A DNA stretch of 64,000 bases, taken from assembly GCA_020059745.1 (NCBI GenBank), contig JAGVBK010000002.1, positions 104,301 through 168,300 on the forward strand. The letters are read 5' to 3'. The DNA comes from Candidatus Shapirobacteria bacterium (GTDB taxonomy: Bacteria; Patescibacteriota; Microgenomatia; UM-FILTER-40-11). The translations under genes were made by a program, and so were the position numbers. The notes under the pieces are model-generated. The model ran no database searches and was not told the origin of the DNA. It saw only the letters and a list, made by a program, of their open reading frames with translations. Below, one piece after another: positions 2,943 through 50,559 of the stretch (its first letter is position 1; the number at the start of each line of letters is the position of its first letter).

Positions 2943-2946
2943 GAAG

Positions 2947-5949: not shown

Positions 5950-5959
5950 TTTGTTTAAC

Positions 5960-7240
5960 TTATCCGTTTAACAAATAAGCGTATTTTTCTCCGATTGCCG
6001 ACCAGCTTCTTTTTTCAGACATGATCTTGGAAAACTTTTTCATTTTCCCCTGCAAAACCTTGCTTTCCGACACTTCTTTTAATTTTTTAAACAAATCTTT
6101 TGAATCAAGACTAAAAATAATCTCTTCCATTTTAAGATTACTTTTTTCTAATGCCTCTTTTATGTCCAAAGAAAGGCAGTAAGCGCTTAAAGGCTCAGAA
6201 AACAAAACCGGCTTTTTATAGGAAAAGGCAATGGACAGTGGTCCGCTGCTGCTGACAAATATCCGGTAAGGAAGTATTACTACATCACTTAAGCTAAAAA
6301 AGTCGTTTATATTTTCTTCATTAATAAAGCCGGTTATTTCGATGTTTTTACCTGCTTTTTTAGCGCATTTGTAAATAGCGGCAATGAATTTTTTATAAAC
6401 CCTATCCTCTTCATGAGTTTTTGCCGGACCGCCGGCCATTATGAGTTTGATGTTTGTTTTTTTGTTCTTTGAAAAATAATGGCTTAAGGTTTTAACCAAC
6501 CAGTCCGAACCCTTATACCAAGTCAAAAAACCAAAACAAAGAACCACAAAATCACTCTCTTTAATTCTCATTTCTTTAAGTTTCACTCTTGAAAGAGCTT
6601 CTTTTCTTTTGGAAGTTCTTCCGTTTGGCTCAACTCCTAATGAAATAGTAACCACCTTTGAGCGGTCAGAGGTAAACTGAAGAGCATGGTTCCTTAGTAT
6701 TTCTTCAAAAGCCACTGTTTTATGACTTAGGTTAACTCCAAGAAAGTAAAGTGTTTTTAAAGCCAAGGTGTATGCTTTCGCCCGAAAACTGTCTTTTTTA
6801 ATTCCCAATTGTTCCACTGCTAAATTGGCATCAGTTAAAATGCCGTGAGAAACAAAATAAACTTTTTTTTGCATGAGCCTTAAAAATAAAAGCAGTGCCG
6901 GAACGCCGGCAAGAAGATAGCGTTTATTGCCGAATATCGCCCATTCAAAAGCAAAAAACACTTTTAAACAGTTTCTCTCCTTTAGTATCTCCCGCACAAT
7001 CTGCAAAAAAAGCTTTGGCTTGTTTCTATCCCAAACTCTTTTTACCTTGATTTTGTCTTCAAAGTATTCTTCTTTACCACCGTCAAGCTTGTCCGCCAAA
7101 ACCACAAACTTTAGTTTTTTCTCTTTTTCCATGCTGGAGAGCAGGGTTTTTTTGGAATAAGGAGCAACTGCCGAATAAGGGTGGTTGTGTAAACTTCCTT
7201 TAGGAGGATAAGTGGTAATAACTAGAATTTTTTCTTTCAT
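5960..7240 (-). CDS. Glycosyltransferase, GT1/GT4-like
   Basis: 426 aa with Rossmann-like halves. The C-terminal half shows GFINEE...SDVVILPY...SSGPL, resembling the GT-B retaining glycosyltransferase signature. Confidence 0.65.
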   Translation of the reverse strand: MKEKILVITTYPPKGSLHNHPYSAVAPYSKKTLLSSMEKEKKLKFVVLADKLDGGKEEYFEDKIKVKRVWDRNKPKLFLQIVREILKERNCLKVFFAFEWAIFGNKRYLLAGVPALLLFLRLMQKKVYFVSHGILTDANLAVEQLGIKKDSFRAKAYTLALKTLYFLGVNLSHKTVAFEEILRNHALQFTSDRSKVVTISLGVEPNGRTSKRKEALSRVKLKEMRIKESDFVVLCFGFLTWYKGSDWLVKTLSHYFSKNKKTNIKLIMAGGPAKTHEEDRVYKKFIAAIYKCAKKAGKNIEITGFINEENINDFFSLSDVVILPYRIFVSSSGPLSIAFSYKKPVLFSEPLSAYCLSLDIKEALEKSNLKMEEIIFSLDSKDLFKKLKEVSESKVLQGKMKKFSKIMSEKRSWSAIGEKYAYLLNG

Positions 7241-7255
7241 AGGGCAGAAAAGAAA

Positions 7256-8062
7256 TTAATATTCGAAAACTTTTTTAAAAGAAGAAACCACTACCTTTCT
7301 GAATTGTGGCCTTATCTGATAAATATTCTTTAGATCATTAACTTTAATGGCAAACATTTCTTTGAAAGCTCTCAAAATATCCCTTACCAGGTTAACTTTA
7401 CTTGACTTACTTATATGTTTCCAAGTAACAGGCAGCTCGACAATTCTGTAATTAAGCTTGTTGCTGACATAAATTACTTCCGGATCCAGCCCCCATCTTT
7501 CTTGAGTCAATCTGGGAAAAACATCGCGACAGACTTGGTAAGAAAAAACCTTAAAGCCGCCGGTAAAATCAGCAATTTTAATTCCTAAAACAGTTTGGAG
7601 AATTTTACTGTGAACCGTGCCGATTATTTCCCTAACCATACTTCTTTTAACCAAGGAAATAGTTTGGGGAAGCTTTTTGCTGCCTACTAAAACTTCATAA
7701 CCTTTATGCATAAAGAGAGAAAATTCTTTAAGGTTTTCAAGAGGAATTGACATGTCGCCGTCTAAAAACATGCCAAAATCAGTATTTACCTCTTTTACTC
7801 CCTGCATGACCGCATATCCCCGGCCTTTGTTTAAGGGATAGGAAATAAGGAAAATTTCCGTTTGGTCAATAATATTTCCGGAGTACTGTCTTTGGAAATT
7901 TTTCAGTAAAGAAAGAGTTTTGTCTTTACTGCCGTCATCAACAAAAATAAGTTTTTCAATCTTAATGCTTTTTGGGCTTTTGTAATTGACAAGATAACCC
8001 AAAGTTTTTTTAAGCCTTTTTTCTTCATTATAGAGAGGGACAATGACAGTTAATGTTTTCAT
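7256..8062 (-). CDS. GT2 glycosyltransferase (polyprenol-phosphate sugar transferase-like)
   Basis: 268 aa. Contains VIVPLYNEE, VDDGSKDKT and a DGD motif, typical of dolichyl/undecaprenyl-phosphate glycosyltransferases. Confidence 0.8.
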   Translation of the reverse strand: MKTLTVIVPLYNEEKRLKKTLGYLVNYKSPKSIKIEKLIFVDDGSKDKTLSLLKNFQRQYSGNIIDQTEIFLISYPLNKGRGYAVMQGVKEVNTDFGMFLDGDMSIPLENLKEFSLFMHKGYEVLVGSKKLPQTISLVKRSMVREIIGTVHSKILQTVLGIKIADFTGGFKVFSYQVCRDVFPRLTQERWGLDPEVIYVSNKLNYRIVELPVTWKHISKSSKVNLVRDILRAFKEMFAIKVNDLKNIYQIRPQFRKVVVSSFKKVFEY

Positions 8063-8063
8063 C

Positions 8064-8279
8064 TTAAAACCCCTTTTCTTTCATGCACCTTTGGTATGAG
8101 TCCCAATCAGGGACACGGGCGCTGCTGCCGCCCTCAGGGTTCTCATAAGTATTGACGCCCACTGTCATACACCCCTGAACAGCATTGTTTTTTATCATTC
8201 TTTCCGATTGCCTGTATCCCAAAACCACCGCTCCAATAAGGGCGGCGCCGATTAAGATAGTTCCGATATCTTTTCTCAT
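8064..8279 (-). CDS. Small single-pass membrane protein, unknown function
   Basis: The internal Met (MRKDIGTILIGAALIGAVVLGY...) gives a 71-aa protein with one TM helix and two Cys. The longer 94-aa version has an unlikely N-terminus. Confidence 0.45.
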   Translation of the reverse strand: MRKDIGTILIGAALIGAVVLGYRQSERMIKNNAVQGCMTVGVNTYENPEGGSSARVPDWDSYQRCMKEKGF

Positions 8280-8403
8280 TTTTTCACCGATAAAAGCATA
8301 AAATAAATTTTTATACTTTAGTCGATGCGTAACCCGAAGAGTGTTCATTTACCTTATGAAGGTAAACTACTAACCCTCCGGGTTACGCGATCGGCATGCA
8401 ATG

Positions 8404-9549
8404 CTACTTGACAAGTCCCAGATACTGCTCCCGCCAGAATGTGGCTGCAATAGCCATTCCTTCCCACCCTACGGGAATTCTGGCTTTGGGATAGCTTGGG
8501 ATCAATATCAAGTTTGGGTCGGTCGGCACCTCCAGACGCTCTCCGTCGAACGGAAATTCGAACGGATTCCTGATGAAAAACGCGTCTTGGGGAGGTGCCT
8601 GCCAGTTGCCGTTGCCCAGATCGACGAGCCTGACACTCGGTGCAAGGCCGAATGTTGAGCGGATCCACGCTTCGTTCACCTGTGAAGGCGAAAAAGCGGG
8701 GGTCGCACTGGGAACGACGGGCGTTGGGGCAGCTAGCGGAACTGGTGTCTGAGTTGGCACAACTTGGGCTACCAAAGTAGCTGTCGGCTGTACCAAACTT
8801 GAGACCTGACCGATTTGACCAACTGAGGTCACAGGGATCACGCCAGTGATCCTGTGATACTCGTCAATACTGAAAGGCCTGAACGTGATCCCCTGTACAG
8901 GACCACACCAACCAGCAGGAATTCCTGACCCAACTGCTTCTGGGGGAAAACCCTCTTCTAGGGTCCTCCCGTGCAACTCCCGCTGTCTGCGGTCCGCCAT
9001 CCAGCCATCTTGCCGGAAAGGAGTGAAGTTACAAACCTCAATGGAAACAATATTCCCAAAGAGGTCTTTCTCCTCCGGCACCTTCCAGCTCCATGGCTCA
9101 CCCCTAGCCCTGCTAACCTCGCTGGGCTCAATGGACGGCTGAGCCTGTCTCCTTGTTGCAAGGATAACAAACTCATCCACTGACCTTGGCCAATCCTCCA
9201 TGACCTCAAGGCCTAGAACCCTGATGTCGTCCAGAGTCTGACCGCCAGTCAGAGTAAGCCCGAAAGCCTGAACCCTAGGTGACGGTGCCATTGCAACCGT
9301 CGGTTCGGATTGAACAGCCTCCTGACCGGGAGTCGGAGTCACAAGGACCTCAACAACCCGAGTCACTTCGACCGGAACCTCCTTCTCGACAACGACGGTC
9401 TCCTTGACCACCTGAGGGACGACCCTGGTGACCTCGACCGGGACCGTCTCCTTGACGATCTCGGGCGTTGGTGTCAGAGCACTTTCCCTGAGCGCACAAC
9501 CCGTGATCATCACGATAGCCACCATTACAACCAGGAATATCATCTTCAT
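8404..9549 (-). CDS. Lipoprotein, unknown function (GC-rich island)
   Basis: 381 aa. It has a signal peptide with lipobox MITGC and an AGGAGG-type SD upstream. An N-terminal tandem KETV.VEVTRVV repeat and Pro/Thr linkers are present. I recognised no family. Confidence 0.6.
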   Translation of the reverse strand: MKMIFLVVMVAIVMITGCALRESALTPTPEIVKETVPVEVTRVVPQVVKETVVVEKEVPVEVTRVVEVLVTPTPGQEAVQSEPTVAMAPSPRVQAFGLTLTGGQTLDDIRVLGLEVMEDWPRSVDEFVILATRRQAQPSIEPSEVSRARGEPWSWKVPEEKDLFGNIVSIEVCNFTPFRQDGWMADRRQRELHGRTLEEGFPPEAVGSGIPAGWCGPVQGITFRPFSIDEYHRITGVIPVTSVGQIGQVSSLVQPTATLVAQVVPTQTPVPLAAPTPVVPSATPAFSPSQVNEAWIRSTFGLAPSVRLVDLGNGNWQAPPQDAFFIRNPFEFPFDGERLEVPTDPNLILIPSYPKARIPVGWEGMAIAATFWREQYLGLVK

Positions 9550-9559
9550 CTCAACCCTC

Positions 9560-10072
9560 CTAATCCCTCTGATGTCTCCGAAGAAACCCTGGAATGTCCA
9601 ACTCCGAACCGGGCGGATCCAGAGGATTTTCAGGCGTCTGCCTTTCCTCTTTCATCTCCGCCGCCCTGAAATTCAACCGTTCCAATTCCTCGATAAGCTC
9701 CTCCCTTTTCTCGTTCAGCTTCTTGATCTCATTTCTCGCCTGCTCGAGTTGAACTCTTTTTTCGCCAACGACACTAGTCAACTCTGCCACAGTCTTCTGT
9801 AGTTCGAGAACTTCTCCGTACAACTCATTTTTTCGACGCTGGCCTTCCTCAATCTTCTCGTCTGTTGTTGAGGCAACTTCCTCTTTCCTCCCTCTCACGT
9901 TCAAGATTATGGAAAGAACGAAAAGCAAAACCCCAACGACCAGGAGAATCCAGACCCAAGGCTCAAAAATCGCGAAAAAGTCGACGAGGACAAGCCCAAC
10001 AACAATATTTACCAGGCTCACCCCCAAAAACACAGTACCAACAATAAGTAAGACCAACACCAGGCGCTTCAT
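9560..10072 (-). CDS. Membrane-anchored coiled-coil protein (GC-rich island)
   Basis: The start is taken at MKRLVLVLLIVG, which has an AGGAGA SD 7 nt upstream. There are two or three TM helices, then a heptad-like Glu/Lys-rich segment (LQKTVAELTSVVGEKRVQLEQARNEIKKLNEKREELIEELERL). Confidence 0.55.
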   Translation of the reverse strand: MKRLVLVLLIVGTVFLGVSLVNIVVGLVLVDFFAIFEPWVWILLVVGVLLFVLSIILNVRGRKEEVASTTDEKIEEGQRRKNELYGEVLELQKTVAELTSVVGEKRVQLEQARNEIKKLNEKREELIEELERLNFRAAEMKEERQTPENPLDPPGSELDIPGFLRRHQRD

Positions 10073-10285
10073 GTCTTCTTCTCCTTTGCATGCCGATGTC
10101 AAAGAACTACTTTTGGCTCCTTCCAAGAACCGCAATTGGTCCTCTTTCTGGGCCAAAAGACCGATTTTTCAAAATCGGAATAATACCCACTATTAATGAA
10201 CATCTTTCCGACTTCAAAAGACAACCAGCCGGAGAGAGAAAGATACGCTTGCGCGTAAACAAACTCTCTCCGGCGAGATGCCATC

Positions 10286-11068
10286 CTACTCGAACCAAAC
10301 CACTGCGGTCCAGACCTTAACGTGCCCCGGCCCCTTGAATTTGTCTAGGTTTTCCCCAAGAATTGGGTTCCACCCGGTGACCAAGGCATTCTCGGGCACA
10401 GCGAGCATGACAGGGTTTCCACCACTGTTATAGTCAAAGCTGCACCCATCCTTCCGAAGGGCCCAGACACCACCAGTGACAACATTGGCTTGAAGCCAAT
10501 CGATGCTTGGGCAACCCTCGGGTTGGTCCGGAATCGGGAGCCTCGGCAAAGGCGGATTGAACACCACTGGGAGAAACAAAATACTTTCTCCAGGTGTCGG
10601 AACCACCGTTGGCTCGGCGGTTGCCATTGCAGTTGGTTCCGGCGTGGCGGTCGGCGTTGCCGTTACAGTTGGTACTGTAACCGTTGGCTCGGCCGTTGCC
10701 GTGGCGCTCTGTGGCTCAATCCACAGAACCCCGTCCCAAAATTCTCCCGAACCAGGTCCTTCCACCAGAAGGTCTTTTTGGCCCTCCGGCTCCGGCCGCG
10801 GATCCCAACCAGTCATCTTGGATCCACCCGCGGGGACAACGAGCAAGATCGGCTCCTCAAACGGGCCTCTTCCGCTCTCGAAAACAAAATCACAACCTTC
10901 GTCGGGCCCGACTTTCCACATCGAGAGTTCACCCCCGATGTTTTCCGCGACCCACTCGAGATCCGGGCACTCTTGCGGGGGTTCCGGAATGGCAACCTCC
11001 GCTGAGAGCTGGAACGGCAAAACTGCCGCCAGCGCGACCACAACCGCGAGTACAAGACTGCGCTTCAT
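10286..11068 (-). CDS. Secreted protein with internally duplicated 2-Cys domain (GC-rich island)
   Basis: The start is taken at MKRSLVLAVVVALAAV (signal peptide), with an AGGAGGGG SD. Two homologous ~85-aa domains (CPDLEW...GCDF...TGWDP and CPSIDW...GCSF...TGWNP) are joined by a Thr/Pro/Ala linker. Confidence 0.6.
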   Translation of the reverse strand: MKRSLVLAVVVALAAVLPFQLSAEVAIPEPPQECPDLEWVAENIGGELSMWKVGPDEGCDFVFESGRGPFEEPILLVVPAGGSKMTGWDPRPEPEGQKDLLVEGPGSGEFWDGVLWIEPQSATATAEPTVTVPTVTATPTATPEPTAMATAEPTVVPTPGESILFLPVVFNPPLPRLPIPDQPEGCPSIDWLQANVVTGGVWALRKDGCSFDYNSGGNPVMLAVPENALVTGWNPILGENLDKFKGPGHVKVWTAVVWFE

Positions 11069-11216
11069 TTCCCCTCCTGGGATCATAAGGATGGCAAATA
11101 CTCAATGTGCTTCTGGTCTCACCAGCCAGATTGGCGCTTACGCCTTTCTAGTTATTGAAACCAGAAAAGGAAATTGAACTCCTAGTTTCCTTTCCCGGCT
11201 TCAACCGGAAACTTCT

Positions 11217-11849
11217 TTATTTTTTAAGACGAAGCAGCATGTATCCGGCAAGACCGGCAATTGAGGTTAAAGGGGCAACGAAAAGCAAACTAGAACCTGT
11301 GGCAGGAGTTTCACCTAAAACTTTTTTAACTTTGGTAACACAAACTTTAGAAGTGTCTTCTCTTTCTTCACCGCCGAATTTAGCCCTGACAGTGTTTTTG
11401 ACATCACAGTCAAAATCTTTATCACTCGGAGTGGAAACAACAACTGTTTCAATCTGTTTCTCTTCTGATTCGCCAGGTCCTAAATCTAAAATATCAAAAG
11501 TAAGGCTTCCTGACTCAAGCTTTAACTCAGCCGGAAGAAAGTCTGTAACAGTCACTTTTTCAAAAGTGCTGTTGCTGTTGTTAATGATTTTTATTCTGAA
11601 AATAACTTTTTCGCCAATGCTGAATTTATAGCCTTCAGGAGTAATGTCGGCTAAATTGTCTTCGAACCTTTTGTCAATCGGGCTCCAAACCTTTTTATCT
11701 AAAACAAGCTCTTCAACTTCGGTACAGACTTCGCCGCCGCCGTATAAAGATTCGCAACGGATTGCTCCAAAAGCATTTTTAGGAGAAATAATAAAAGCCG
11801 CAATAAATAAAATTGCGGTTAACAAAGCATGTTTCCTGTCCATTTTCAT
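11217..11849 (-). CDS. Surface protein with DUF11-like repeat domain and C-terminal sorting signal
   Basis: It has a signal peptide and a V.F.I...N.....F..V.V.D.LP..L core shared with the 12846-13490 protein. The C-terminus reads GETPATG, then a hydrophobic helix and an RLKK tail, a variant of LPXTG. Confidence 0.65.
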   Translation of the reverse strand: MKMDRKHALLTAILFIAAFIISPKNAFGAIRCESLYGGGEVCTEVEELVLDKKVWSPIDKRFEDNLADITPEGYKFSIGEKVIFRIKIINNSNSTFEKVTVTDFLPAELKLESGSLTFDILDLGPGESEEKQIETVVVSTPSDKDFDCDVKNTVRAKFGGEEREDTSKVCVTKVKKVLGETPATGSSLLFVAPLTSIAGLAGYMLLRLKK

Positions 11850-11974
11850 TTTTATTAAGGCTAAATAATAAAGACATGGCGTATTATAGGGCATGTTTAT
11901 TGCTTTGTCAACTGCCGATTTCTTGATTTTAGTAAACTTTTAAGAGATAATATCGCCGTTTACTAGAGGATATT

Positions 11975-12730
11975 ATGGAAATAATTCTTTTTGATTCATC
12001 CTGGGAAAAGGAAAAAATAATACCGGTTGATATTCCGGTTCCTAAACCTGTGGAACCAAAAATTTCTTCTTCTTTCCCTTTCGCAAAATTTGCCAGAGGC
12101 CTTGCTTTGGGCTTAATCGGCATTTCTCTTTTTGTTTTTGGCGCAGCAGTTTTGCCAATAATCAAGCTGGAATTAAGCTACCGCCTTAATCCTAAAAATG
12201 AAGCTGAAGCAAGAGAATACTTTCCCAAAACTCCAAGTTATGAGGTTGCCTTAGAAAACAAAAAGCAGCTTGCCTCACAAGAAGCAGCCAAATACGGGGT
12301 TGATACAGATTTTTCTCTGGTCATCCCTAAAATTTCTGCTACCTCAAAAATCATTGCCAATGTGGACCCGGCAGACGAAAATAAATACAAAGCTGCTCTT
12401 AAAAATGGAGTTGCCCACGCCAGCGGCACCAAATTCCCTGGCAGCAAAGGCACTATTTATCTTTTTGCCCATTCCACCAACACTTTAGTTAATGTTTCCC
12501 GCTACAATGCTGTCTTTTATCTAGTTAAAGAGCTGGAACCCGGAGACCAGGTTATCATCTTTTTTGCCGGTCTAAAATATTCGTACCGGGTAACCGAAAA
12601 GGTCATCACTACTCCAGAAGATTTATCTTTGATAAAAGACAACCAATCAACTGAAAAGCTAATTCTTCAAACCTGTTGGCCGCCGGGAACAACCTTAAAA
12701 CGGCTCATGGTTGTAGCAGAAAGAATTTAA
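11975..12730 (+). CDS. Sortase-family transpeptidase (copy 1)
   Basis: 251 aa with an N-terminal TM helix. Contains IYLFAHST (catalytic His region) and LILQTCWPPGT (TLxTC-like Cys motif). Confidence 0.8.
   Translation: MEIILFDSSWEKEKIIPVDIPVPKPVEPKISSSFPFAKFARGLALGLIGISLFVFGAAVLPIIKLELSYRLNPKNEAEAREYFPKTPSYEVALENKKQLASQEAAKYGVDTDFSLVIPKISATSKIIANVDPADENKYKAALKNGVAHASGTKFPGSKGTIYLFAHSTNTLVNVSRYNAVFYLVKELEPGDQVIIFFAGLKYSYRVTEKVITTPEDLSLIKDNQSTEKLILQTCWPPGTTLKRLMVVAERI
12281..12392 (+). repeat. Near-identical 112-nt tract shared by the two sortase paralogs (copy 1)
   Basis: Differs at only 2 positions from 13871-13982, while the flanking coding sequence is clearly diverged. Shorter identical blocks lie at 12449-12482 = 14039-14072 and 12653-12687 = 14243-14277. 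Confidence 0.9.
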
Positions 12731-12845
12731 CTTTCCATTTAAAAGTTCCCGAAATTAGTTTTCAAAGAGCTTAAATTGAAAATAATGGTTGGGGTTTAGA
12801 GCAGTTTTAGAAGCATGTAACAACATGGTAATAACTTTGTTAAAG

Positions 12846-13490
12846 CTATCTTCTTTTACCAAAGAAGACCAAGGCCAGACCCAAGAGTCCGTTTACTAAA
12901 GAAAGACCCAAAGTTGCTGGCATGGCACCGCTTCCGGTTTTCGGTAAAACCGTTGGTTTCCTCTCAACAACTTCTCGTCTGCTTACGCAAATTCTTGAGG
13001 TATCTTTATCCTCAATTCCGTCAGCTTTAACCGCTACTTCGTTAAAATCACAGATAACATCCTTATCTTTTGGAAATCTGCCTTCACTTACTACCCTTAC
13101 CCTGATATCCCTTTCCTCCACTTCATTGCGGTCAAAATCTGTAATATCAAAATCCAAATCTCCAGAAACAAACTCTAAAAATGAAGGAAGAGTATCTCTT
13201 ACCTCAACCCTGTCAAAGTCTCTTTCTCCTGTATTTTCCACCCTAATCCTGAAAACAACTTCATCCCCGGAAAAAAACTCATGGTCAGTAAAATCAAGGT
13301 TGTCAACAAAACGGCCGTCTCTTGGGTCCTGCACTTTTTTGTCAACATCAATTTCAATCGGCGGGCAAACATCATACTGAGGCTCACAAATATCAGAAGC
13401 AGCCGCATCTTTCCTCAAAACAAAAAAAAATGAAGCGGATAAAAAGATTAAGCCAAGTTTTCTTAATGTCATTTTGCTTACAATTTCCAT
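12846..13490 (-). CDS. LPXTG-anchored surface protein with DUF11-like repeat domain
   Basis: 214 aa with a signal peptide. The canonical LPKTG is followed by a hydrophobic segment and a GKRR tail. It is a paralog of the 11217-11849 product. Confidence 0.75.
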   Translation of the reverse strand: MEIVSKMTLRKLGLIFLSASFFFVLRKDAAASDICEPQYDVCPPIEIDVDKKVQDPRDGRFVDNLDFTDHEFFSGDEVVFRIRVENTGERDFDRVEVRDTLPSFLEFVSGDLDFDITDFDRNEVEERDIRVRVVSEGRFPKDKDVICDFNEVAVKADGIEDKDTSRICVSRREVVERKPTVLPKTGSGAMPATLGLSLVNGLLGLALVFFGKRR

Positions 13491-13603
13491 TTCTATTTAT
13501 TATTCACAGGGTGCCAAATCGTGTCAAGCAGAAAGAAACATTTTTAGTTCAAATTTATTTTTTTAGCTTGAATTTCCTAGCTTTTTTTTAATATAAACAG
13601 AGT

Positions 13604-14320
13604 ATGGAAATAATTCTTTATGAGGCTAAAGATAAAAAAAGCCTTGTTTTAAAAGAGTTTACAAAACTTTCTTTCATAAACTCCAAAGCCGCAGCCGAAT
13701 ACCTGGGCTACAGCTTTCTTGCCGCCTCCTTAATGTTTCTATTGGTCGGCTTTGCCCCGATTATTAAAGAAGAAGCAAAATATCAACTAAAAAGACTTTT
13801 TACTTTCTCTGCTCCGGAGGCAAGCGTTGAAAGTGTTTTTTTTGAAAACTCAAAAAAAATTGTTGAAGAGGAAGCAGCCAAATACGGGGTTGATACAGAT
13901 TTTTCTCTGGTCATCCCCAAAATTTCTGCAACCTCAAAAATCATTGCCAATGTGGACCCGGCAGACGAAAATAAATACAAAGAACTTCTAAAAACCGGAG
14001 TGGCACACGCGACAGGCACAAAGTTTCCCGGAAACAATGGCACTATTTATCTTTTTGCCCATTCCACCAACAACCCGGAAAACATTGTCCGCTACAATGC
14101 GGTTTTTTACCTTTTAAAAGAACTTGAGCCTGAAGATGAAGTCATTGTTTTTTTTGCCGGCCAAAAATTTGTCTATAAAGTTACCAAAAACTTTATTGCC
14201 GAAGCCGGTGACCTAAAATGGCTCTCGGGAGATGAGAATGAAGAAAAGCTAATTCTTCAAACCTGTTGGCCGCCGGGGACAACTTTCAAACGGCTCATTG
14301 TTGAAGCTAAACCTTTATAA
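13604..14320 (+). CDS. Sortase-family transpeptidase (copy 2)
   Basis: 238 aa with the same IYLFAHST and LILQTCWPPGT motifs as copy 1. Confidence 0.8.
   Translation: MEIILYEAKDKKSLVLKEFTKLSFINSKAAAEYLGYSFLAASLMFLLVGFAPIIKEEAKYQLKRLFTFSAPEASVESVFFENSKKIVEEEAAKYGVDTDFSLVIPKISATSKIIANVDPADENKYKELLKTGVAHATGTKFPGNNGTIYLFAHSTNNPENIVRYNAVFYLLKELEPEDEVIVFFAGQKFVYKVTKNFIAEAGDLKWLSGDENEEKLILQTCWPPGTTFKRLIVEAKPL
13871..13982 (+). repeat. Near-identical 112-nt tract shared by the two sortase paralogs (copy 2)
   Basis: Partner of 12281-12392, with 2 mismatches by direct comparison. Confidence 0.9.
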
Positions 14321-14359
14321 AGGTCTTTCTTAAAGAAAGCTTCATTTTATGTTAAAATA

Positions 14360-16528
14360 TTGATGGACAGAAACCAAATGACTGGAGAAGAATTACCTTT
14401 CTCATTGATTGAGATCCGTTTACCTAAATCAAGCGAAAAAACCCCGGAAGCGGCGGCTCAGCTTTTTGCGGCCTTTTCCTCCCTTCCTAAAAAGTCTTTT
14501 TTGTCTTTTAAACCTCCAGTAAGCATTTGTTTTGAAATTGTTTGTGTTGACCAGGTCGTCCATTTTCTCATTTCCTGCCCTAAGGAAATGAAAGGTTATG
14601 TTGAAAGCCAGCTTTCTGCCCAATATCCGGAAAGCATCCTTCTGGAAATTCCCAAAGATTATCTTGCCGGCTACACCCAAAACTCAAACCCAAACCTGGG
14701 CCAGCTTACTTTATCAAACAGCTTTTATCTGCCTTTGCGAACCTATAAGGAAGTTAAAGACTCTGATCTTATTTCTTCTGTTTTGGGCGCTATGTCCAAA
14801 GCCGGGCCGGAAGATTTTATGGCTATCCAATTTATTATCGCCCAAGCCGGTAACTGGCAAGGCTATGCCCAGGGAATCATTGACAGAGGAATCCCCTCAG
14901 GAGAGGAAGGAAAAACTCTTCCCCACCCCCAGGCAAAACACATTGCTGAAAAAATAAGCAGCGGTGGCTTTTGGACCGCCATAAGAATCATTGCCAGTTC
15001 AGAAGAACTTCTAAGAAATATTTCCAATTCCTTTTCTTCCTACCAAAGCGATGTCAATGGCTTAAAACTTAAAAAAATAAGCCCGAGAAACAAAAAAAAG
15101 CTGCTTGAATCTTGTCTCAAAAGGTCTTTCGAAATGGCTCCTGCTAACCAGGTTCTTAACCTTGACGAGCTCGCTTCTCTTTGGCACCCTCCATCAAAGC
15201 ATTTGTCGGGCATTAAAAACATCATGTGGACACAAACCATTATGAGTGAGCCTCCCCTAAACCTGCCTACAGCAATCGACCTTAATGAAGCTGACAAAAA
15301 AGAAATCAATTTCATAGCCCGGACTGAGCATAAAAACAAGGTGGCAACCTTTGGCATTAAGAAAAAAGACCGTAGAAGGCATGTTTACATTATCGGGAAA
15401 AGCGGTACCGGAAAATCAACTTTAATTGCCAATATGGCCATAAACGACTTAAGGAACCGGGAAGGTCTGGCAGTTATTGATCCTCACGGCGATTTAACTG
15501 AAATTCTTTTGGATTATATTCCCTCTTTTAGGATAAACGAAACTTGCTATCTTGACCCGAGCGACACCGCCAACCCTTTTCATCTTAATCCCCTTGAGGT
15601 TAAAAACCCGGCCCATAGAGAACTTGTGGCCTCGAATATTGTCGCCATTTTTTATAAGCTCTACCACTATTCCTGGGGGCCAAGGCTTGAATACATTTTA
15701 AGAAATACAATCCTGACTTTACTGCAAACCCCGCAGCCAACACTTCTTCAGATTACGGAAATGCTTTCCAATAAAAACTTCAGGAAAAGAGTGGTTGATA
15801 ACCTCAATGACCCGGTCTTAAAAAGCTTCTGGGTTAATGAGTTTGAAAAAATGTCTGAAAAAATGATGAATGAAGCGGTTTCTCCGATTTTAAATAAAGT
15901 CGGCCAGTTTACTTCCTCTCCCACCATCAGACAAATTGTCGGCTCTTATCACTCAACAGTTGACCTTGAGGGTATCATGAATTCCGGCAAAGTTTTGCTT
16001 GTTAACCTTTCCCAAGGAAAAATTGGAGAAGACAATGCTGCGCTTTTAGGTGCCATGATTATTACCCAGCTTCAACTGGCGGCCATGAACAGGATTAATG
16101 TTGCTGAAGAACAAAGGAGAGATTTTTATCTTTATGTTGACGAGTTTCAAAACTTTGCCACCAGTGCCTTTGTTAAAATACTTTCTGAGGCAAGAAAATA
16201 CCGCTTAGACCTTTGTCTGGCAAATCAGTATGTCGGCCAGCTTGAAGAAGACCTGCAAAAAGCAATTTTCGGGAATGCGGGAACTTTAATTTCTTTTGTT
16301 GTCGGTGCCGGAGATGCAGGCTACATGGCCCAGGAATTCGGCCAGATTTATAAAGAAGAAGATTTAGTTAATCTGGGCATGTATCAGGTGGCAATGAAGC
16401 TTTGCATCGACAACTTAACATCTTCTCCGTTTTTGGCTACCACCATGCCTCTTCCAAGATGCAAAAACCAAAACAGGTCAAAAGTGCTTAAGGTCTCCAA
16501 GGAAAGACACACGGTCAAGCAAAAATAA
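14360..16528 (+). CDS. VirD4/TraD/TraG-like P-loop NTPase (type IV secretion coupling-protein family) with orphan N-terminal domain
   Basis: 722 aa. Walker A is IIGKSGTGKST, followed by VIDPHGD. Walker B-like is FYLYVDEFQNF, with a KYRLDLCLANQY region. The N-terminal ~330 aa have no obvious TM helices and no motif I recognise. Confidence 0.65.
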   Translation: MMDRNQMTGEELPFSLIEIRLPKSSEKTPEAAAQLFAAFSSLPKKSFLSFKPPVSICFEIVCVDQVVHFLISCPKEMKGYVESQLSAQYPESILLEIPKDYLAGYTQNSNPNLGQLTLSNSFYLPLRTYKEVKDSDLISSVLGAMSKAGPEDFMAIQFIIAQAGNWQGYAQGIIDRGIPSGEEGKTLPHPQAKHIAEKISSGGFWTAIRIIASSEELLRNISNSFSSYQSDVNGLKLKKISPRNKKKLLESCLKRSFEMAPANQVLNLDELASLWHPPSKHLSGIKNIMWTQTIMSEPPLNLPTAIDLNEADKKEINFIARTEHKNKVATFGIKKKDRRRHVYIIGKSGTGKSTLIANMAINDLRNREGLAVIDPHGDLTEILLDYIPSFRINETCYLDPSDTANPFHLNPLEVKNPAHRELVASNIVAIFYKLYHYSWGPRLEYILRNTILTLLQTPQPTLLQITEMLSNKNFRKRVVDNLNDPVLKSFWVNEFEKMSEKMMNEAVSPILNKVGQFTSSPTIRQIVGSYHSTVDLEGIMNSGKVLLVNLSQGKIGEDNAALLGAMIITQLQLAAMNRINVAEEQRRDFYLYVDEFQNFATSAFVKILSEARKYRLDLCLANQYVGQLEEDLQKAIFGNAGTLISFVVGAGDAGYMAQEFGQIYKEEDLVNLGMYQVAMKLCIDNLTSSPFLATTMPLPRCKNQNRSKVLKVSKERHTVKQK

Positions 16529-16531
16529 AAA

Positions 16532-16888
16532 CTAGGTTCTTCTTCTGGAAAAATTCAGAAACCGGCAACCATATCTTTTCCTGTGTTCCAAACCCTCCTT
16601 AACCTTACCGCTCATATGGGTGCAGGGCGCGCCCTTACCGGAAGTAATTACTTCAAACAACCTAGCTTTATCTTCTCCTGACAAAAACTCACTTTGCCTT
16701 AGCCTTTCAATTTCCGAAAGCGCTTCAGAAGATAAAGATATGTGGCTGCCAAATTGCTTTTCAATCCTTAAAAGTATTCCACCAAGCATGCCATTACCTC
16801 CCTCCTCAAAATAGCTTTTAACAAATTTTCCAAGCGGTCTAGCGGCAAGATCGCCAGATATTCTCTCAGGTCTCATAGTAATTTTCAT
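16532..16888 (-). CDS. Hypothetical protein
   Basis: 118-aa ORF with no recognised motif and no SD. A TATAAT overlaps the first ATG, so the true start may be Met5 (16876) on a short-leader mRNA. Confidence 0.4.
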   Translation of the reverse strand: MKITMRPERISGDLAARPLGKFVKSYFEEGGNGMLGGILLRIEKQFGSHISLSSEALSEIERLRQSEFLSGEDKARLFEVITSGKGAPCTHMSGKVKEGLEHRKRYGCRFLNFSRRRT

Positions 16889-16926
16889 TATAGCAGTTTA
16901 GCTGAGATTTTTTCCAACAAAAAATC

Positions 16927-16952
16927 CGCCTATTCGGCGGACTTCTTGAAAA
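16927..16952 (-). terminator. Intrinsic terminator of ncRNA candidate 2
   Basis: The minus strand reads UCCGCC-GAAUA-GGCGGA followed by UUUUUGUU. Confidence 0.7.
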
Positions 16953-17232
16953 CAATCGAGAGCCAGAGAGAGAATTTGGATTTGCGGGAAACGCTGGCTT
17001 AGCCAACGAATCTCATCCTCTTTCCTCTCTGGCTCTCACCTCCCCAAAGGGAGAAGATAAAGACATCGGACAAAACCTTCTTCTCATTCTCTCCTCTCCA
17101 GCAGCCATTGATGGAAAAGAAAGGTTTCCTGTGCCCCAGCTCACAGTTAGAGATTGGGTTTCTCCTAGTCTTTTTTTTAAAGGACTCCGCACAAAAAAAC
17201 ACTTTCTGCTTTCTTAGGAAGTGTTTGTGAGG
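16927..17232 (-). ncRNA. Structured ncRNA candidate 2 (unclassified)
   Basis: It is bracketed by a TTGACA-17-TATTAT promoter and an intrinsic terminator. It contains a 13-bp perfect helix (16968-16980 with 17025-17037) and further hairpins. There is no ORF with an SD. Confidence 0.5.
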
Positions 17233-17238
17233 AAGATA

Positions 17239-17267
17239 ATAATAACAAATGCTATTTTTCTTGTCAA
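17239..17267 (-). promoter_or_regulatory. Sigma-70-type promoter for ncRNA candidate 2
   Basis: The minus strand has TTGACA (17267-17262), a 17-nt spacer and TATTAT (17244-17239). Confidence 0.6.
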
Positions 17268-17272
17268 GCCCA

Positions 17273-17300
17273 ACAAAAAACCCGCCTATTCGGCGAGTTC
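17273..17300 (-). terminator. Intrinsic terminator of ncRNA candidate 1
   Basis: The minus strand reads CUCGCC-GAAUA-GGCGGG followed by UUUUUUGUU. The loop and 3' arm are almost identical to the terminator at 16927-16952. Confidence 0.7.
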
Positions 17301-17645
17301 TTTGAGAAAACAAGGGAAAACGGATGGGGTCGGGGGAAGGCAACAATACATCAAGTGGTTTTAAAAACCCACAAAATGTATCTTTACCTTCCCGGGTTCC
17401 CCTTACCCTCCCGTTTGACGGGACCGACAGTTGCTTCTCTTTGGTTTGGTAAAAATACACCTTGCCTGGAGAAGCTGGCCCGCTTTAAGCGGAGCCAAAG
17501 GAAGTAGTCCGAGGATATCTGCGAATAAAAGGCAAAATCCCTCCTTTCCTTCAATCACTGCAGTGGCGGATACAACGCCGGGTCGGGGTAACCAAGCTTT
17601 TGTCTTTTGGGTCAGCTTGGTTTTTTAATCCGTTTTCCCTTTTAA
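17273..17645 (-). ncRNA. Structured ncRNA candidate 1 (unclassified)
   Basis: A 14-bp perfect closing helix (17312-17325 AAGGGAAAACGGAT with 17628-17641 ATCCGTTTTCCCTT) encloses about 300 nt that is visibly GC-richer and has several internal hairpins. A terminator follows immediately on the minus strand. The 5' end and promoter are uncertain. Confidence 0.5.
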
Positions 17646-17744
17646 AAGAACAAAACATTCTTACCTTTGCTTATAAAGATAAGAAAAATGACACTAAATA
17701 AATGCTATATAATTTTTTATTTTCTGTCAATATACACCTTGTGC

Positions 17745-18068
17745 CTAAACCTTTGTCCAGCCGGTTTTTTCAAGCTGGCTTATAAGCTGGGGACAATCGC
17801 CTTCTGTAGTAAGCTGCATCACGAAAGCTCCGGTGTCGGTAACCACCTCGCAGATTTCACCTACTTTTCTGCCCTCTTTATAAAGACAAAGACCGCCTTT
17901 TCTTTCCGTAATCTGCTCAGTGCCATGCCCATTTTGCCGAGAAAATCTGACTTCATGATACTCGTTTCCCTTATCGTTCCAAAAGTTTCCATTGCAGTTT
18001 TCGCTAAAGATACAGTGGTTTATAATCCAAACTGAAGGTTGAAAGTGTCCATTTTCAGGACTTAGCAT
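17745..18068 (-). CDS. Hypothetical small Cys-containing protein
   Basis: 107-aa ORF with no recognised motif and no clear SD. Confidence 0.35.
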   Translation of the reverse strand: MLSPENGHFQPSVWIINHCIFSENCNGNFWNDKGNEYHEVRFSRQNGHGTEQITERKGGLCLYKEGRKVGEICEVVTDTGAFVMQLTTEGDCPQLISQLEKTGWTKV

Positions 18069-18201
18069 AATTAATTTTGATATTTTTCAACAAAAATTTC
18101 AATTATCAAATTAAGCCATAAAAATTGACATTATAGGATATTTATGATAAATTTCTGCCCATCCGTTCATTACGGTATGCACATTCACAACAGGAGGTAC
18201 A

Positions 18202-18729
18202 ATGTACATCCGGGAGTTGCCCGCAGTTGGAGAGCTAGCAAAAGTGCAGGCTCAAATCGTCCGGTATGTTCTGCTCACGATTTTTTTCGGATCTCTCCTT
18301 TTTCTCTCTGCCGCTCTTTTCGGCTCCGACATTGTTTGGAGCTGGGATGGCTTTGATCCCTTCTTGGGAGAAAGAGCCATCGAGGGCCTGGCAATCTCAT
18401 TTCTTACCTCTGGGCTGGAAATGCTCAGGGGCATATTGGTTGCAGGAGAAGTAGTAAAAAGGAAATCGCCCGAGTACTACCTTTTGTGCATCCTTGAAGC
18501 AGTTGCCTATGTAGTTGATATCATTACCAACTACTTGGGCATATCTGTACGGCGAGGAGAGTCGGCCTGGGGCTGGACGAGCGACAATGCTGTCGCCACT
18601 ATAGTCAAGGCAGGACTGGCCATCGTCGTCAGCTTCATGGAAATGTTTGTGTTCTGGTTTGCTGAGGCAACGGCTGTTTGCTCGAAATCTCTACAGGCTG
18701 CTGTAGAAACAAAAAAGCAACTGTCCTAG
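18202..18729 (+). CDS. Hypothetical integral membrane protein
   Basis: 175 aa. AGGAGG lies 4 nt upstream of the ATG. There are about 4 hydrophobic helices. It is followed by a long GC-rich hairpin around 18735-18775. Confidence 0.55.
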   Translation: MYIRELPAVGELAKVQAQIVRYVLLTIFFGSLLFLSAALFGSDIVWSWDGFDPFLGERAIEGLAISFLTSGLEMLRGILVAGEVVKRKSPEYYLLCILEAVAYVVDIITNYLGISVRRGESAWGWTSDNAVATIVKAGLAIVVSFMEMFVFWFAEATAVCSKSLQAAVETKKQLS

Positions 18730-18787
18730 CCTCATACCTAAGAGAGGGGGTCTCTTGTTTTTTTTGAGGGACCCTCTCTCGCCTTGC

Positions 18788-19348
18788 TTAAATAGAAGTA
18801 ATCTCTTCTTCTTTTCTCTTGCTTAATTCCTCTACTCTTCCTGTATATTCATCGGTTATTTTTTGCAAATCGTCCTCTGCTTTAAATTTCTCGTCTTCCG
18901 AAATTTCCTTTTCTTCAAAAGCCGTTTTTATTTCTCTTATCTTGTCCTGTCTTATGTTTCTAATCGCAATTCTTGCATTTTCTGTTTTCTGACTTAAAAG
19001 TTTGACGTATTCCTGTCTTCGTTCCGAAGTTAAAGGCGGCACTGAAATTCTTATGATGTTGTTATCAATTACCGGAGTCAATCCGACATTGGCAGCCAGA
19101 ATTCCCTGCCTTATCTCTCCAATCACTGAAGCATCCCAAGGCTGGATAAGAAGTGTTTGCGGGTCTGAAGCAGTAATCATACCCAAAGCCTGAACAGTCA
19201 TTTTTTGGGTTCCGCCGTAAGCGTTTACGGAGATATTTTCAACCAAAGCCGGCACGGCCCTGCCTGTTCTTATGGCAGAAATTTCCGTTTTAAAGTGGTC
19301 AACGGTTTTCTGCATATCAGCTTTAGTGTCTGAAAAATCAACCGCCAT
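18788..19348 (-). CDS. frr: Ribosome recycling factor
   Basis: RRF-like sequence (ISAIRTGRA...LLIQPWD...PPLTSERRQEYVK...IRNIRQD). The first ATG at 19348 gives 186 aa; the longer ORF starts at a TTG. Confidence 0.9.
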   Translation of the reverse strand: MAVDFSDTKADMQKTVDHFKTEISAIRTGRAVPALVENISVNAYGGTQKMTVQALGMITASDPQTLLIQPWDASVIGEIRQGILAANVGLTPVIDNNIIRISVPPLTSERRQEYVKLLSQKTENARIAIRNIRQDKIREIKTAFEEKEISEDEKFKAEDDLQKITDEYTGRVEELSKRKEEEITSI

Positions 19349-50505: not shown

Positions 50506-50559
50506 CTGGCTTTCTTCTACTCCCTTGCTTTTAAAACACTTTCATGCTATTATTTTTTA

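Follow-up and report, generated by a model that had tools for sequence, protein, structure and literature searches.

The window analysed here, a stretch of 64,000 nucleotides, has the content of a core chromosome (frr, tsf, rpsB, topA, nrdD, mreBC, PBP2, and ribosomal protein genes), and dprA is also present. On its + strand lies an intact open reading frame (14360..16528) with a TTG as its mechanical start. The likely start is the ATG at 14378, since the database protein P0001, which has 716 aa and is 100% identical to the window protein, and the N-termini of homologues agree on this position. NCBI places the start at ATG 14363, resulting in a protein of 721 aa (RJR24787.1, 'DUF87 domain-containing protein [Candidatus Microgenomates bacterium]'), and JGI labels a fragment 'TraG/TraD family ATPase VirD4'. 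The features of the gene are listed in Table 1.

Table 1. Features at the ATPase locus, in window positions.
Feature	Position	Strand	Remarks
Sortase copy 2	13604..14320	+	
Extended -10-like element TGTTAAAAT	14350..14358	+	20 nt upstream of ATG 14378; read from sequence
Coding sequence, DUF8128 / TrwB-type ATPase	14378..16528	+	716 aa plus stop
N-terminal domain, aa 1-290, DUF8128	14378..15247	+	VirB4-NTD-like alpha/beta fold (predicted)
Linker, aa 270-330, highly conserved (LWHPP...IKNI.W...EPP.NLP)	15185..15367	+	alignment and pLDDT
C-terminal RecA-like nucleotide-binding domain and C-terminal tail	15368..16525	+	inserted all-alpha domain (helices ~aa 411-535)
Walker A P-loop GKSGTGKST, aa 340-348	15395..15421	+	aligns to TrwB P-loop
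DPHGD motif, aa 368-372	15479..15493	+	counterpart in TrwB is DPNGD
Walker B VDEFQ, aa 587-591	16136..16150	+	aligns to TrwB IDEL

A Pfam scan of approximately 60 ORFs of the window found no VirB4, VirB6, VirB3, VirB8, or relaxase families, in agreement with a reading made from the sequence only, which had noted that other type IV secretion system (T4SS) genes were missing. Integrase and transposase families were likewise not found among these ORFs, several small flanking ORFs matched nothing, and neither VirB3/PrgI nor any other inner-membrane T4SS component is encoded with the ATPase in the window. Rfam gave nothing credible on the gene-poor stretch at 16.5-18.8 kb.

The C-terminal half of the protein is a nucleotide-binding domain of the TrwB/VirD4/DotL type in which the Walker motifs are intact and an all-alpha domain is inserted. 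The Pfam model TrwB_AAD_bind matched with 41 bits (cut-off 20.5), DUF87, the HerA central P-loop domain, and TraG-D_C were both above their cut-offs, and TrwB was the best sequence match among solved structures. By its DUF87 match the protein belongs to the HerA / FtsK-HerA superfamily, and the TrwB-type domain has its all-alpha domain as well as Walker A and B. The motifs that can be read in the frame, IIGKSGTGKST (Walker A), VIDPHGD, and YLYVDEFQNF (Walker B), are kept invariant across 21 aligned homologues, with G340, K341, G343, T344, G345, and K346 in Walker A, D368, P369, H370, G371, and D372 in the DPHGD motif, and V587, D588, E589, F590, and Q591 in Walker B. The coupling-protein-type P-loop that the sequence-only reading had seen in this half is thus real. 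All curated NCBIfam models of type IV coupling proteins (T4CPs) remained far under their cut-offs (conju_CD1115, 43 bits versus 250; SXT_TraD, 35.7 versus 366; conj_TOL_TraD, 17.7 versus 648), and the NCBIfam CedD model matched weakly at the P-loop (31 bits, cut-off 600).

A Kyte-Doolittle scan with 19-residue windows found no transmembrane segment in the window protein and, with 20 homologues included, no conserved hydrophobic segment. The 19-mer of highest hydrophobicity in the window protein includes E, D, Q, and H, and its hydrophobicity is not kept in the homologues. As a control, TrwB was analysed with the same scan, which detected two transmembrane segments. Both the missing N-terminal anchor and the description as a soluble VirD4/TraD-type P-loop ATPase, a type of motor that passes DNA or proteins into T4SSs, as proposed before, are therefore borne out by the hydropathy scan and the Pfam matches.

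At the position where the usual transmembrane anchor would be, the protein has a domain of 290 aa that had been regarded, at a length of 330 aa, as an orphan. It is in fact catalogued as DUF8128 (PF26449), with precomputed Pfam matches in P0001 and in all 120 listed homologues, and a search with this domain alone returned 960 clusters at 50% identity; a literature search for 'DUF8128' found no papers. A structural search with the model of the domain gave TrwK chains as the best and only strong matches (PDB 7o42, 7o41, 8rtd), and the predicted DUF8128 fold thus resembles the N-terminal domain of VirB4. It had also been considered that the domain might match a known family with an unrelated role; the known family was found, and its predicted fold points to VirB4. 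In hhalign comparisons, the N-domain profile (77-81 sequences) reached probabilities of less than 0.3% with MPF_T VirB4, Patescibacteria VirB4-like, and TrsD-like proteins, and we therefore rejected homology at the sequence level; the link to the VirB4 N-terminal domain is structural. With tblastn, the N-domain alone had no match on plasmids, and with the full-length query the alignment to plasmids started from residue 50.

The linker between the two halves contains the invariant residues H270, L276, N281, I282, W284, E291, P293, N295, L296, and P297 and may be an oligomer or partner interface. The predicted model has low confidence at the linker, with pLDDT values of 50-66 over residues 281-350.

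Full-length homologues that include the N-domain are encoded on Bacillus plasmids and by phages. In hhalign comparisons with A1, a Bacillus plasmid DUF87 protein matched over residues 30-687 (probability 100%, E 6e-40), followed by gp156 of phage G (99.95%, E 1.8e-37) and gp27.4 of the lytic phage SPO1 (99.5%, E 1e-22), and phrog_5156 matched with E 3.6e-66. The same hydropathy scan found no transmembrane helix in the Bacillus plasmid homologues or in SPO1 gp27.4, and the N-domain insertion of phage G gp156 contains a single strongly hydrophobic segment (~aa 182). On the 24.7-kb B. subtilis plasmid NZ_CP032854, the homologue (WP_121549396.1) is found together with Replic_Relax, TcpC, TcpE, and an AAA_10 (VirB4/TcpF) ATPase of 848 aa, and plasmids of 65 kb have a counterpart of this homologue. 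Phage G encodes a TrbL_4 (VirB6-like) protein (gp153), a VirB4-like protein (gp155), the homologue (gp156), and Replic_Relax (gp146), and gp155 matched the Patescibacteria VirB4 of locus L001 with E 1.5e-68. Replic_Relax corresponds to the MOB_C family of relaxases (PMC5357655). The full-length homologues of Bacillus plasmids and phage G occupy the coupling-protein slot beside a MOB_C relaxase and T4SS genes. We also considered the T4CP of the pLS20 family as the plasmid counterpart and rejected it: gene 48 of pLS20 encodes a canonical T4CP with two transmembrane helices (PMC8557374), and the Bacillus homologues sit on other, Tcp-type plasmids.

With a VirB4-NTD-like domain, a RecA-like C-terminal domain, and no transmembrane segment, the protein has the architecture of VirB4 itself. 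It could in principle be a further VirB4-type ATPase for assembly or energising, a paralogue in the 'outside' VirB4 position of the inner-membrane complex that does not act as the substrate receptor, and the VirB4central-VirB4outside dimer of R388 is indeed formed exclusively through the N-terminal domains (PMC9259494). We nevertheless regard such a role as improbable. The T4CP models named above are favoured over the VirB4 models, of which TIGR00929 reached 19.1 bits at a cut-off of 643 and PF03135 did not match at all. Moreover, a separate VirB4-type ATPase is encoded wherever T4SS genes adjoin, which is the case on the Bacillus plasmid, in phage G, and at three Patescibacteria loci (L001, L004, L006), and a position near the relaxase gene is the usual one of a coupling protein.

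The family is kept in nearly all Patescibacteria. We found 586 relatives in species-representative genomes, with 34-57% identity across Microgenomates, Dojkabacteria, Berkelbacteria, Peregrinibacteria, and Parcubacteria groups and in housekeeping contexts, and the mean column identity over 21 aligned sequences was 58%. The more distant the taxa, the lower the identity, and the genes remain syntenic with housekeeping genes, which indicates vertical inheritance. This synteny is lineage-specific: the neighbours are secDF and a sigma-r4/HARE-HTH-like gene in Parcubacteria, rluD-lytR upstream and yebC-ruvCAB downstream in Dojkabacteria, and rho, topA, and PBP2 in Microgenomates. An all-against-all clustering of the ORFs within ±8 kb of 81 loci found no neighbour family common to the lineages. 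The window and 77 of 80 species-level loci have no T4SS gene up to 10 kb from the ATPase gene; at the remaining three, the orthologue is divergently adjacent to genes for PrgI, TrsD-like, and VirB4-like proteins and an M23 peptidase. As these three loci are related (Gottesmanbacteria-like), their linkage may go back to one rearrangement. Neither the window nor any of the 80 loci gave a relaxase homologue. Relaxases are missing from most Patescibacteria.

In a published survey of 3,035 Patescibacteria genomes, 2,918 had VirD4-type T4CP homologues, which numbered 5,713 in total and of which only 148 were near virB4; at 96% of the genomes, T4CP homologues were more widespread than VirB4 (80%) (PMC12102498). 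The window protein is very probably one of these homologues, judging from its sequence, because the same T4CP-type models match and because of the JGI name of the fragment. In Southlakia epibionticum, the t4cp homologue, which may or may not be of the DUF8128 type, was dispensable, whereas T4SS genes were essential, and the authors stated that an exaptation of Patescibacteria T4CP homologues 'cannot be ruled out' (PMC12102498).

Sortase copy 2 ends 39 nt before the TTG of the ATPase frame, and with ATG 14378 or 14363 as the start, the gap is therefore 42-57 nt. The co-orientation of the two genes had been noted correctly, and the reported spacing of 40 nt shifts accordingly. This arrangement had suggested that the ATPase may be a partner of a sortase/LPXTG surface module and could, for example, energise the export or assembly of sortase substrates. 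Sortases and small LPXTG/DUF11 proteins are also encoded upstream in the close relatives L081 and L082/L083, and DUF11-like proteins occur within 10 kb at 9 of the 80 loci. However, a sortase within 10 kb was detected at only 2/80 loci with phmmer and at 6/80 species-level loci with iterated jackhmmer; at four of these six loci the sortase has the opposite orientation, at the other two it lies over 5 kb from the ATPase gene, and at none is it co-oriented and adjacent. In close relatives (77-78% identity), sortases are nearby within the general synteny, but genes on the opposite strand separate them from the ATPase gene, and the ATPase family is kept in lineages and contexts without any sortase. 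Furthermore, an extended -10-like motif is conserved directly upstream of the ATPase gene, suggesting that this gene has its own promoter. The orthologues in L081 and L082, whose upstream neighbour is encoded on the opposite strand, have the same TGnTAnAAT element at the aligned upstream position; a consensus promoter scan did not list the candidate element of the window. Sortase substrates are exported by Sec, and a cytoplasmic ATPase of this type is not needed for that. The adjacency to sortases is not conserved, which the sequence-only reading had itself named as a refutation, and we therefore rejected the sortase partnership, which appears hardly credible to us; the position of the ATPase gene is most likely a local accident, and the flanking sortases and LPXTG proteins would belong to an unrelated surface module.

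A role as a component of a mobile element or of an anti-phage defence system (MADS mad8-like, DndH/DptH-like, or HerA-type) was weighed because PADLOC models matched the ATPase half (mad8, E 1.7e-14, 52 bits; HerA, E 5e-7; DndH, E 1e-5). In addition, an IMG/VR scan found only relatives that have the C-terminal domain alone (390-520 aa), on contigs of 42% to 58% G+C. Genes for a recombinase or ParB, or unannotated genes resembling those of mobile elements, were present on the contigs examined, and the scan gave no clear sign of Patescibacteria phages carrying the full-length gene. The PADLOC matches, however, were confined to the ATPase, no partner component of these systems was found in the 7-8 flanking ORFs scanned, and we rejected membership in a defence system on these grounds. 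The only PADLOC matches among the neighbours were weak ones (E 7e-5 to 7e-3) of a 198-aa ORF at 9560-10156 to unrelated defence models. The core-chromosomal window, with no integrase, transposase, or relaxase family among the ORFs scanned with Pfam, as well as the vertical inheritance described above, also argue against a mobile element, and we consider a function of either kind very improbable.

We give about even chances to the explanation that the gene, chromosomal and inherited vertically, represents in Patescibacteria a family of anchor-less T4CP-like ATPases and that its product is a motor docked on the T4SS of the lineage, which is encoded elsewhere on the chromosome. By analogy with other members of the FtsK/HerA superfamily, the protein would assemble into an ATP-driven, ring-shaped motor. 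In the R388 structure, VirB4 molecules contact each other as dimers through their N-terminal domains, which also bind VirB3 (PMC9259494). In an analogous manner, DUF8128 could dock the motor onto the cytoplasmic face of a monoderm-type T4SS consisting of PrgI/VirB3, TrsD, VirB4, VirB6, and VirB2 pilins, and the docked motor would recruit a substrate there or push it. The domain matches, the family-wide homology that extends to the N-domain, the core-gene behaviour, the survey counts of T4CP homologues, and the T4SS linkage of homologues on Bacillus plasmids, in phage G, and at three of 80 Patescibacteria loci speak for this explanation. Against it stand the window and the 77 loci without a T4SS gene within 10 kb, the kinship of the three linked loci, the lack of a relaxase homologue in the window and the 80 loci, the low scores with the NCBIfam T4CP models, the likeness to the VirB4 N-terminal domain, which derives from a predicted model and has no profile-profile signal, and the survey data, in which T4CP homologues are commoner than VirB4 and a t4cp is dispensable.

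The unlinked loci and the survey data would fit a housekeeping translocase of coupling-protein descent that was exapted and became independent of the T4SS. It could act on chromosomal or incoming DNA, alone or with unlinked partners other than T4SS components, and contribute to DNA uptake or processing, recombination, or segregation, similar to the DNA import by the archaeal Ced ATPases. The housekeeping neighbours that differ between lineages and the very high conservation of the protein are in line with such a role, as are the dprA gene in the window, the weak CedD match, and the precedent of CedB/CedD, HerA-clade ATPases with partial VirB4-like N-terminal domains that import DNA without a canonical T4SS (PMC11868833). 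On the other hand, no neighbour conserved across lineages names another partner, the linkage to T4SS genes is found independently in Bacillus plasmids, phage G, and three Patescibacteria loci, and the strongly conserved VirB4-NTD-like docking domain suggests a surface for a VirB4-type partner. The stand-alone DNA or protein translocase that the sequence-only reading had envisaged is a live rival, which we consider possible but rather unlikely, and the T4SS genes beside the homologues count against it.

A further-reaching idea is that a motor of coupling-protein descent, kept as a near-universal core gene, in which the anchor was swapped for a VirB4-like docking domain, has moved past conjugation and drives a lineage-defining process. 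We consider this doubtful. Candidate processes would be that DNA or nucleoprotein from the host is imported or processed, or that protein effectors are delivered via the T4SS, which is essential for epibiotic growth in the one Patescibacteria species tested (PMC12102498). If true, the motor would be an experimentally tractable entry to macromolecule exchange between epibiont and host. In any case, the orphan ATPase of Patescibacteria now has an architecture, in which the membrane anchor is missing and the N-terminal domain has a predicted VirB4-like fold, and its family is now tied to T4CP-slot proteins, most of them without membrane helices, from Bacillus Tcp-type MOB_C plasmids and from the phages SPO1 and G. 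The resulting hypotheses can be tested in genetically tractable Bacillus systems and in Saccharibacteria. For annotation, the gene should count neither as evidence of a conjugative element nor as part of a sortase locus.

In comparison with the T4CPs TrwB of R388, VirD4/Cagbeta, DotL/IcmO, and TraD, the window protein has in common the RecA-like domain with an inserted all-alpha domain and the Walker A, DPxGD, and Walker B motifs, with TrwB_AAD_bind and TraG-D_C above their cut-offs, and its Bacillus plasmid homologues adjoin a relaxase gene, as T4CP genes often do. It differs by the soluble DUF8128 in place of an N-terminal transmembrane anchor, by an identity of only 12-13% in structural alignments, and by a gene that is chromosomal, conserved phylum-wide, and in most cases not linked with T4SS and relaxase genes. 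With VirB4 (TrwK of R388) it shares the soluble two-domain layout, with an alpha/beta domain at the N-terminus and a TrwB-like ATPase domain after it, but the N-domain has about 290 aa versus about 400 aa in TrwK and no profile similarity, and VirB4 HMMs do not match. The uncharacterised proteins of Bacillus plasmids, SPO1, phage G, and PHROG 5156 are homologous over the full length with the N-domain, but have 21-30% identity and are 110-200 aa longer, due to a loop insertion in the N-domain near aa 170-180 and a C-terminal extension. They belong to mobile elements and are found next to a MOB_C (Replic_Relax) relaxase and a Tcp-type T4SS, whereas the window gene lies in a core chromosome without a relaxase. 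The archaeal CedB/CedD of Sulfolobales are also members of the FtsK/HerA superfamily, have N-terminal domains homologous in structure to parts of that of VirB4, and act without a canonical T4SS (PMC11868833); unlike the window protein, they belong to the HerA clade by sequence, and each has only part of the VirB4 N-terminal domain. The T4CP homologues of Quinonero-Coronel et al. 2025 are from the same phylum, near-universal, and mostly far from virB4, and the domain architecture presented here, with the missing transmembrane anchor, DUF8128, and the VirB4-like fold, was not described there (PMC12102498).

The open reading frame at 14360..16528 on the forward strand is intact, as the sequence-only reading had it, but its start is likely to lie further downstream: the identical database protein (716 aa) and the alignment of homologue N-termini favor ATG 14378. 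NCBI places the start of RJR24787.1 ([quoted passage not shown]) at ATG 14363. The coupling-protein-type motifs recognized earlier (Walker A GKSGTGKST, DPHGD, and Walker B VDEFQ) are all present and invariant across 21 homologues, and residues 327-662 match the Pfam families TrwB_AAD_bind (41 bits versus a cut-off of 20.5), DUF87, and TraG-D_C. A 19-residue hydropathy scan found no conserved hydrophobic segment in the protein and recovered both known transmembrane helices of the control TrwB, which bears out the proposed lack of a membrane anchor. The gene product belongs to the T4CP (type IV coupling protein)/VirB4 branch of the FtsK-HerA superfamily and has a T4CP-like ATPase without a membrane anchor.

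The N-terminal domain (aa 1-290) had been regarded as an orphan, which can no longer be maintained. PF26449 (DUF8128) is precomputed N-terminal to PF10412 in 120/120 of the best homologues, from a total of more than 3,465, and querying the full library by HMMER with residues 1-320 returned 960 clusters at 50% identity. A local Pfam scan was empty because our Pfam copy lacks the PF26449 model; "DUF8128" gave no literature match. Modeled by itself with AF2 (input of 21 sequences), the domain was predicted very confidently (pLDDT 91.5, pTM 0.89), and the top Foldseek ranks were twelve chains of TrwK/VirB4, TrwK being the VirB4 of R388 (E 8e-6 to 5e-4, probability 1.00, query-normalized TM 0.42-0.53). 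As modeled, DUF8128 has a fold like that of the VirB4 N-terminal domain. Profile-profile comparison of a 77-81 sequence alignment of the domain with VirB4, Patescibacteria VirB4-like, and TrsD-like sequences gave no signal, and the predicted relationship is at the fold level only. In the R388 system, residues 15-400 of VirB4 form its N-terminal domain, which accounts for all of the VirB4central-VirB4outside dimer contact and has VirB3 wrapped around it (PMC9259494). The linker at aa 270-330 is conserved (LWHPP…IKNI.W…EPP.NLP) and predicted with low confidence; it may become ordered within an oligomer or upon a partner.

When one genome per species was scanned, 586 relatives were found. The best 80 comprise Microgenomates-labeled MAGs (Gottesman-, Shapiro-, Levy-, and Roizmanbacteria, 45-57% identity) as well as Dojkabacteria, Berkelbacteria, Peregrinibacteria, and several Parcubacteria groups (34-41%), identity decreasing with taxonomic distance. 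When all ORFs within ±8 kb of 81 loci were clustered, no neighbor was conserved across lineages, and housekeeping synteny was lineage-specific. The gene belongs to the conserved core of Patescibacteria and behaves as vertically inherited, not as a mobile element. A role in defense or in a mobile element is very improbable; with regard to defense, the PADLOC matches are confined to the ATPase half. Many MAG titles are clearly wrong (e.g. "uncultured Gammaproteobacteria" for contigs of Patescibacteria type), and lineage statements therefore rest on sensibly labeled records and shared synteny. Among species representatives with this gene and synteny, the titles "Pseudomonadales" and "Candidatus Saccharibacteria" also occur, many of them in binchicken/SRP assemblies, and look unreliable. 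One homologue record bears the name Bathyarchaeia.

A Pfam scan of ~60 window ORFs turned up core-chromosome functions only (among them frr, folD, glyA, nrdD, dut, dprA-topA, PBP2, mreB/mreC, def/fmt, nusG-rplKAJL, rseP, glycosyltransferases); tsf, rpsB, tmk, and thyX were assigned via synteny with the close relative L081. The scan showed no VirB4, VirB6, VirB3, VirB8, or relaxase family, in agreement with the earlier statement that other T4SS genes are absent here. The segment between the ATPase and frr, which in the close relatives L081 and L082 are ~330-420 bp apart, has no match in Pfam, PHROG, PADLOC, or Rfam and may represent decayed sequence or an insertion specific to the lineage.

Coordinates and gene contexts of features in the window and in related loci
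Feature	Position	Details
ORF upstream of two glycosyltransferases	2947-5949, minus	1000 aa; no Pfam match; ~1000-aa ORF similarly placed in close relatives L081 and L083
Segment of G+C 0.47-0.52 (~0.40 elsewhere in window)	8354-11177	Three minus-strand ORFs: 381-aa putative lipoprotein; 198-aa TM + coiled-coil protein; 266-aa secreted protein with Pro/Thr/Ala/Val-rich repeats (e.g. ATAEPTVT); no Pfam match, no homologue in 80 related loci
Surface module	11217-14320	Two copies
Copy 1, DUF11 protein	11217-11894	Sorting signal …ETPATG…
Copy 1, sortase	11975-12730	Identical 29-nt stretch (12355-12373)
Copy 2, DUF11 protein	12846-13490	Sorting signal LPKTG
Copy 2, sortase	13604-14320	Identical 29-nt stretch (13945-13963)
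Extended -10-like element	14350-14358	TGTTAAAAT, just upstream of ATPase start
ATPase stop to frr	16529-18790	~2.3 kb; weak ORFs of 118, 153, 122, 175 aa only, the 175-aa ORF resembling a membrane protein
nrdD	26731-28572	Anaerobic ribonucleotide reductase
dprA-topA	28684-31789	
mreB	34463-35515	Adjoins mreC and PBP2
L10 leader	50545-50667	
mreB, second paralogue within 64 kb	54229-55233	
T4SS core, L001 (also L004, L006)	2673-9900	488-aa PrgI-domain, 218-aa TrsD-like, 641-aa VirB4-like, 717-aa M23 peptidase
SPO1 (L096), lytic Bacillus phage	86173-102137	Plasmid-/conjugation-like module
Phage G (L097), lytic Bacillus phage	85459-99147	Plasmid-/conjugation-like module
Parcubacteria context		secD-secF, sigma-region-4/HARE-HTH-like gene, ATPase
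Dojkabacteria context		rluD-lytR, ATPase, yebC-ruvC-ruvA-ruvB
Microgenomates context		rho, M23 peptidase, topA, PBP2, Wzy-TPR, rseP

Upstream of the ATPase lies a tandemly duplicated two-gene surface module, each copy consisting of a sortase and, divergent from it, a small protein with DUF11 repeats, a signal peptide, and, at its C-terminus, a cell-wall sorting signal. Both sortases are class C/D-like and match each other with E 1e-75. Relatives at 77-78% identity likewise have sortases and small minus-strand proteins upstream of the ATPase and frr-tsf-rpsB downstream, with opposite-strand genes intervening between sortase and ATPase; the TGTTAAAAT element aligns with its equivalent in L081 and L082. 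In an iterated search, a sortase was found within 10 kb (<=10 kb) in only 6/80 species-level loci, four on the opposite strand and two >5 kb away. The adjacency, from which a partnership with the surface module had been proposed, is local synteny, and that the ATPase serves as a sortase partner is extremely unlikely. Non-conservation of the adjacency was the outcome that the sequence-only reading had itself named as refuting.

Outside Patescibacteria, the protein matched PHROG 5156 (E 3.6e-66), and tblastn found Bacillus phage G gp156, SPO1 gp27.4, SPO1-like phages, and plasmid-encoded "DUF87 domain-containing" proteins of Bacillus, Priestia, Peribacillus, and Shouchella, the latter aligned from residue 50 to ~700. 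Comparison with the family alignment by hhalign (B. subtilis plasmid protein: probability 100%, E 6e-40, residues 30-687; gp156: 99.95%, E 1.8e-37; gp27.4: 99.5%, E 1e-22) confirms, as judged from sequence profiles, full-length homology including the N-domain. Two Bacillus plasmid proteins and gp27.4 have no transmembrane helix, and gp156 has one strongly hydrophobic segment (~aa 182) inside an N-domain insertion.

These homologues are embedded in conjugation modules. On the B. subtilis plasmid NZ_CP032854, the gene order is ParM … homologue, Replic_Relax (PF13814, the MOB_C relaxase family; PMC5357655), TcpC, TcpE, an 848-aa AAA_10 ATPase of the VirB4/TcpF type (E 3e-116), and a conjugal transfer protein. 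Phage G encodes Replic_Relax (gp146), the VirB6-like TrbL_4 (gp153), and a VirB4-like ATPase (gp155) along with gp156, and in SPO1 gp27.4 is directly followed by the Replic_Relax protein gp27.3, with the actin-like ParM homologue gp27.9 ~1 kb upstream and four small ORFs between. In Firmicutes mobile elements, the family occupies the position of the coupling protein, next to the relaxase, and a separate VirB4 is also encoded; a VirB4-like assembly role for the window ATPase is improbable. In Patescibacteria, the ATPase occasionally adjoins a T4SS core: in L001, L004, and L006, the orthologue is divergently adjacent to PrgI (VirB3-like), TrsD-like, VirB4-like, and M23 peptidase genes, and their VirB4-like ATPase matches gp155 (E ~1e-66 to 1e-69). 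These three are Gottesmanbacteria-like genomes with the core head-to-head with the DUF8128 ATPase; in L006, dnaN adjoins the core.

Viral-classified IMG/VR contigs (L085-L091; 42% to 58% G+C) encode relatives of 390-520 aa that are 34-50% identical to the C-terminal half and lack DUF8128; the ATPase half, then, is also in circulation with no N-domain attached. Some of these genes lie beside ParB-like or serine-recombinase genes, and a Patescibacteria origin of the G+C-rich contigs is unlikely.

A survey of Patescibacteria counted 5,713 VirD4-type T4CP homologues in 2,918/3,035 genomes, only 148 of them near virB4; 2,417 genomes had VirB4, and relaxases were scarce (109, mostly MOB_C; 39 near t4cp) (Quiñonero-Coronel et al., 2025, PMC12102498). 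The window protein very probably belongs to this set. The T4SS cluster itself has no recognizable coupling protein or relaxase (Wang et al., 2023, PMC10633639). The gene itself is no discovery, because the family already has a catalogue entry and its ubiquity at sites distant from virB4 is on record. Neither paper describes the domain architecture, and in the searchable literature we found neither the VirB4-like domain in place of a membrane anchor nor the homology to the T4CP-slot proteins of Bacillus Tcp-type MOB_C plasmids, SPO1, and phage G, which are mostly without transmembrane helices.

We infer, with an even chance of being right, that the protein would assemble into a ring motor, that its N-domain would dock this motor onto the cytoplasmic side of the monoderm-type T4SS that the lineage encodes elsewhere (orthologue surroundings were examined for ±10 kb only), and that the docked motor would handle a substrate. 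The main rival, which we consider possible and clearly weaker, is a motor that would now be T4SS-independent, for instance acting on incoming or chromosomal DNA. In Southlakia epibionticum, the t4cp homologue is dispensable though the T4SS genes are essential, so that T4CP exaptation is possible according to the survey authors (PMC12102498). A precedent for such an independent motor is provided by the archaeal CedB/CedD ATPases, which, like the window protein as modeled, have VirB4-like N-terminal parts (PMC11868833).
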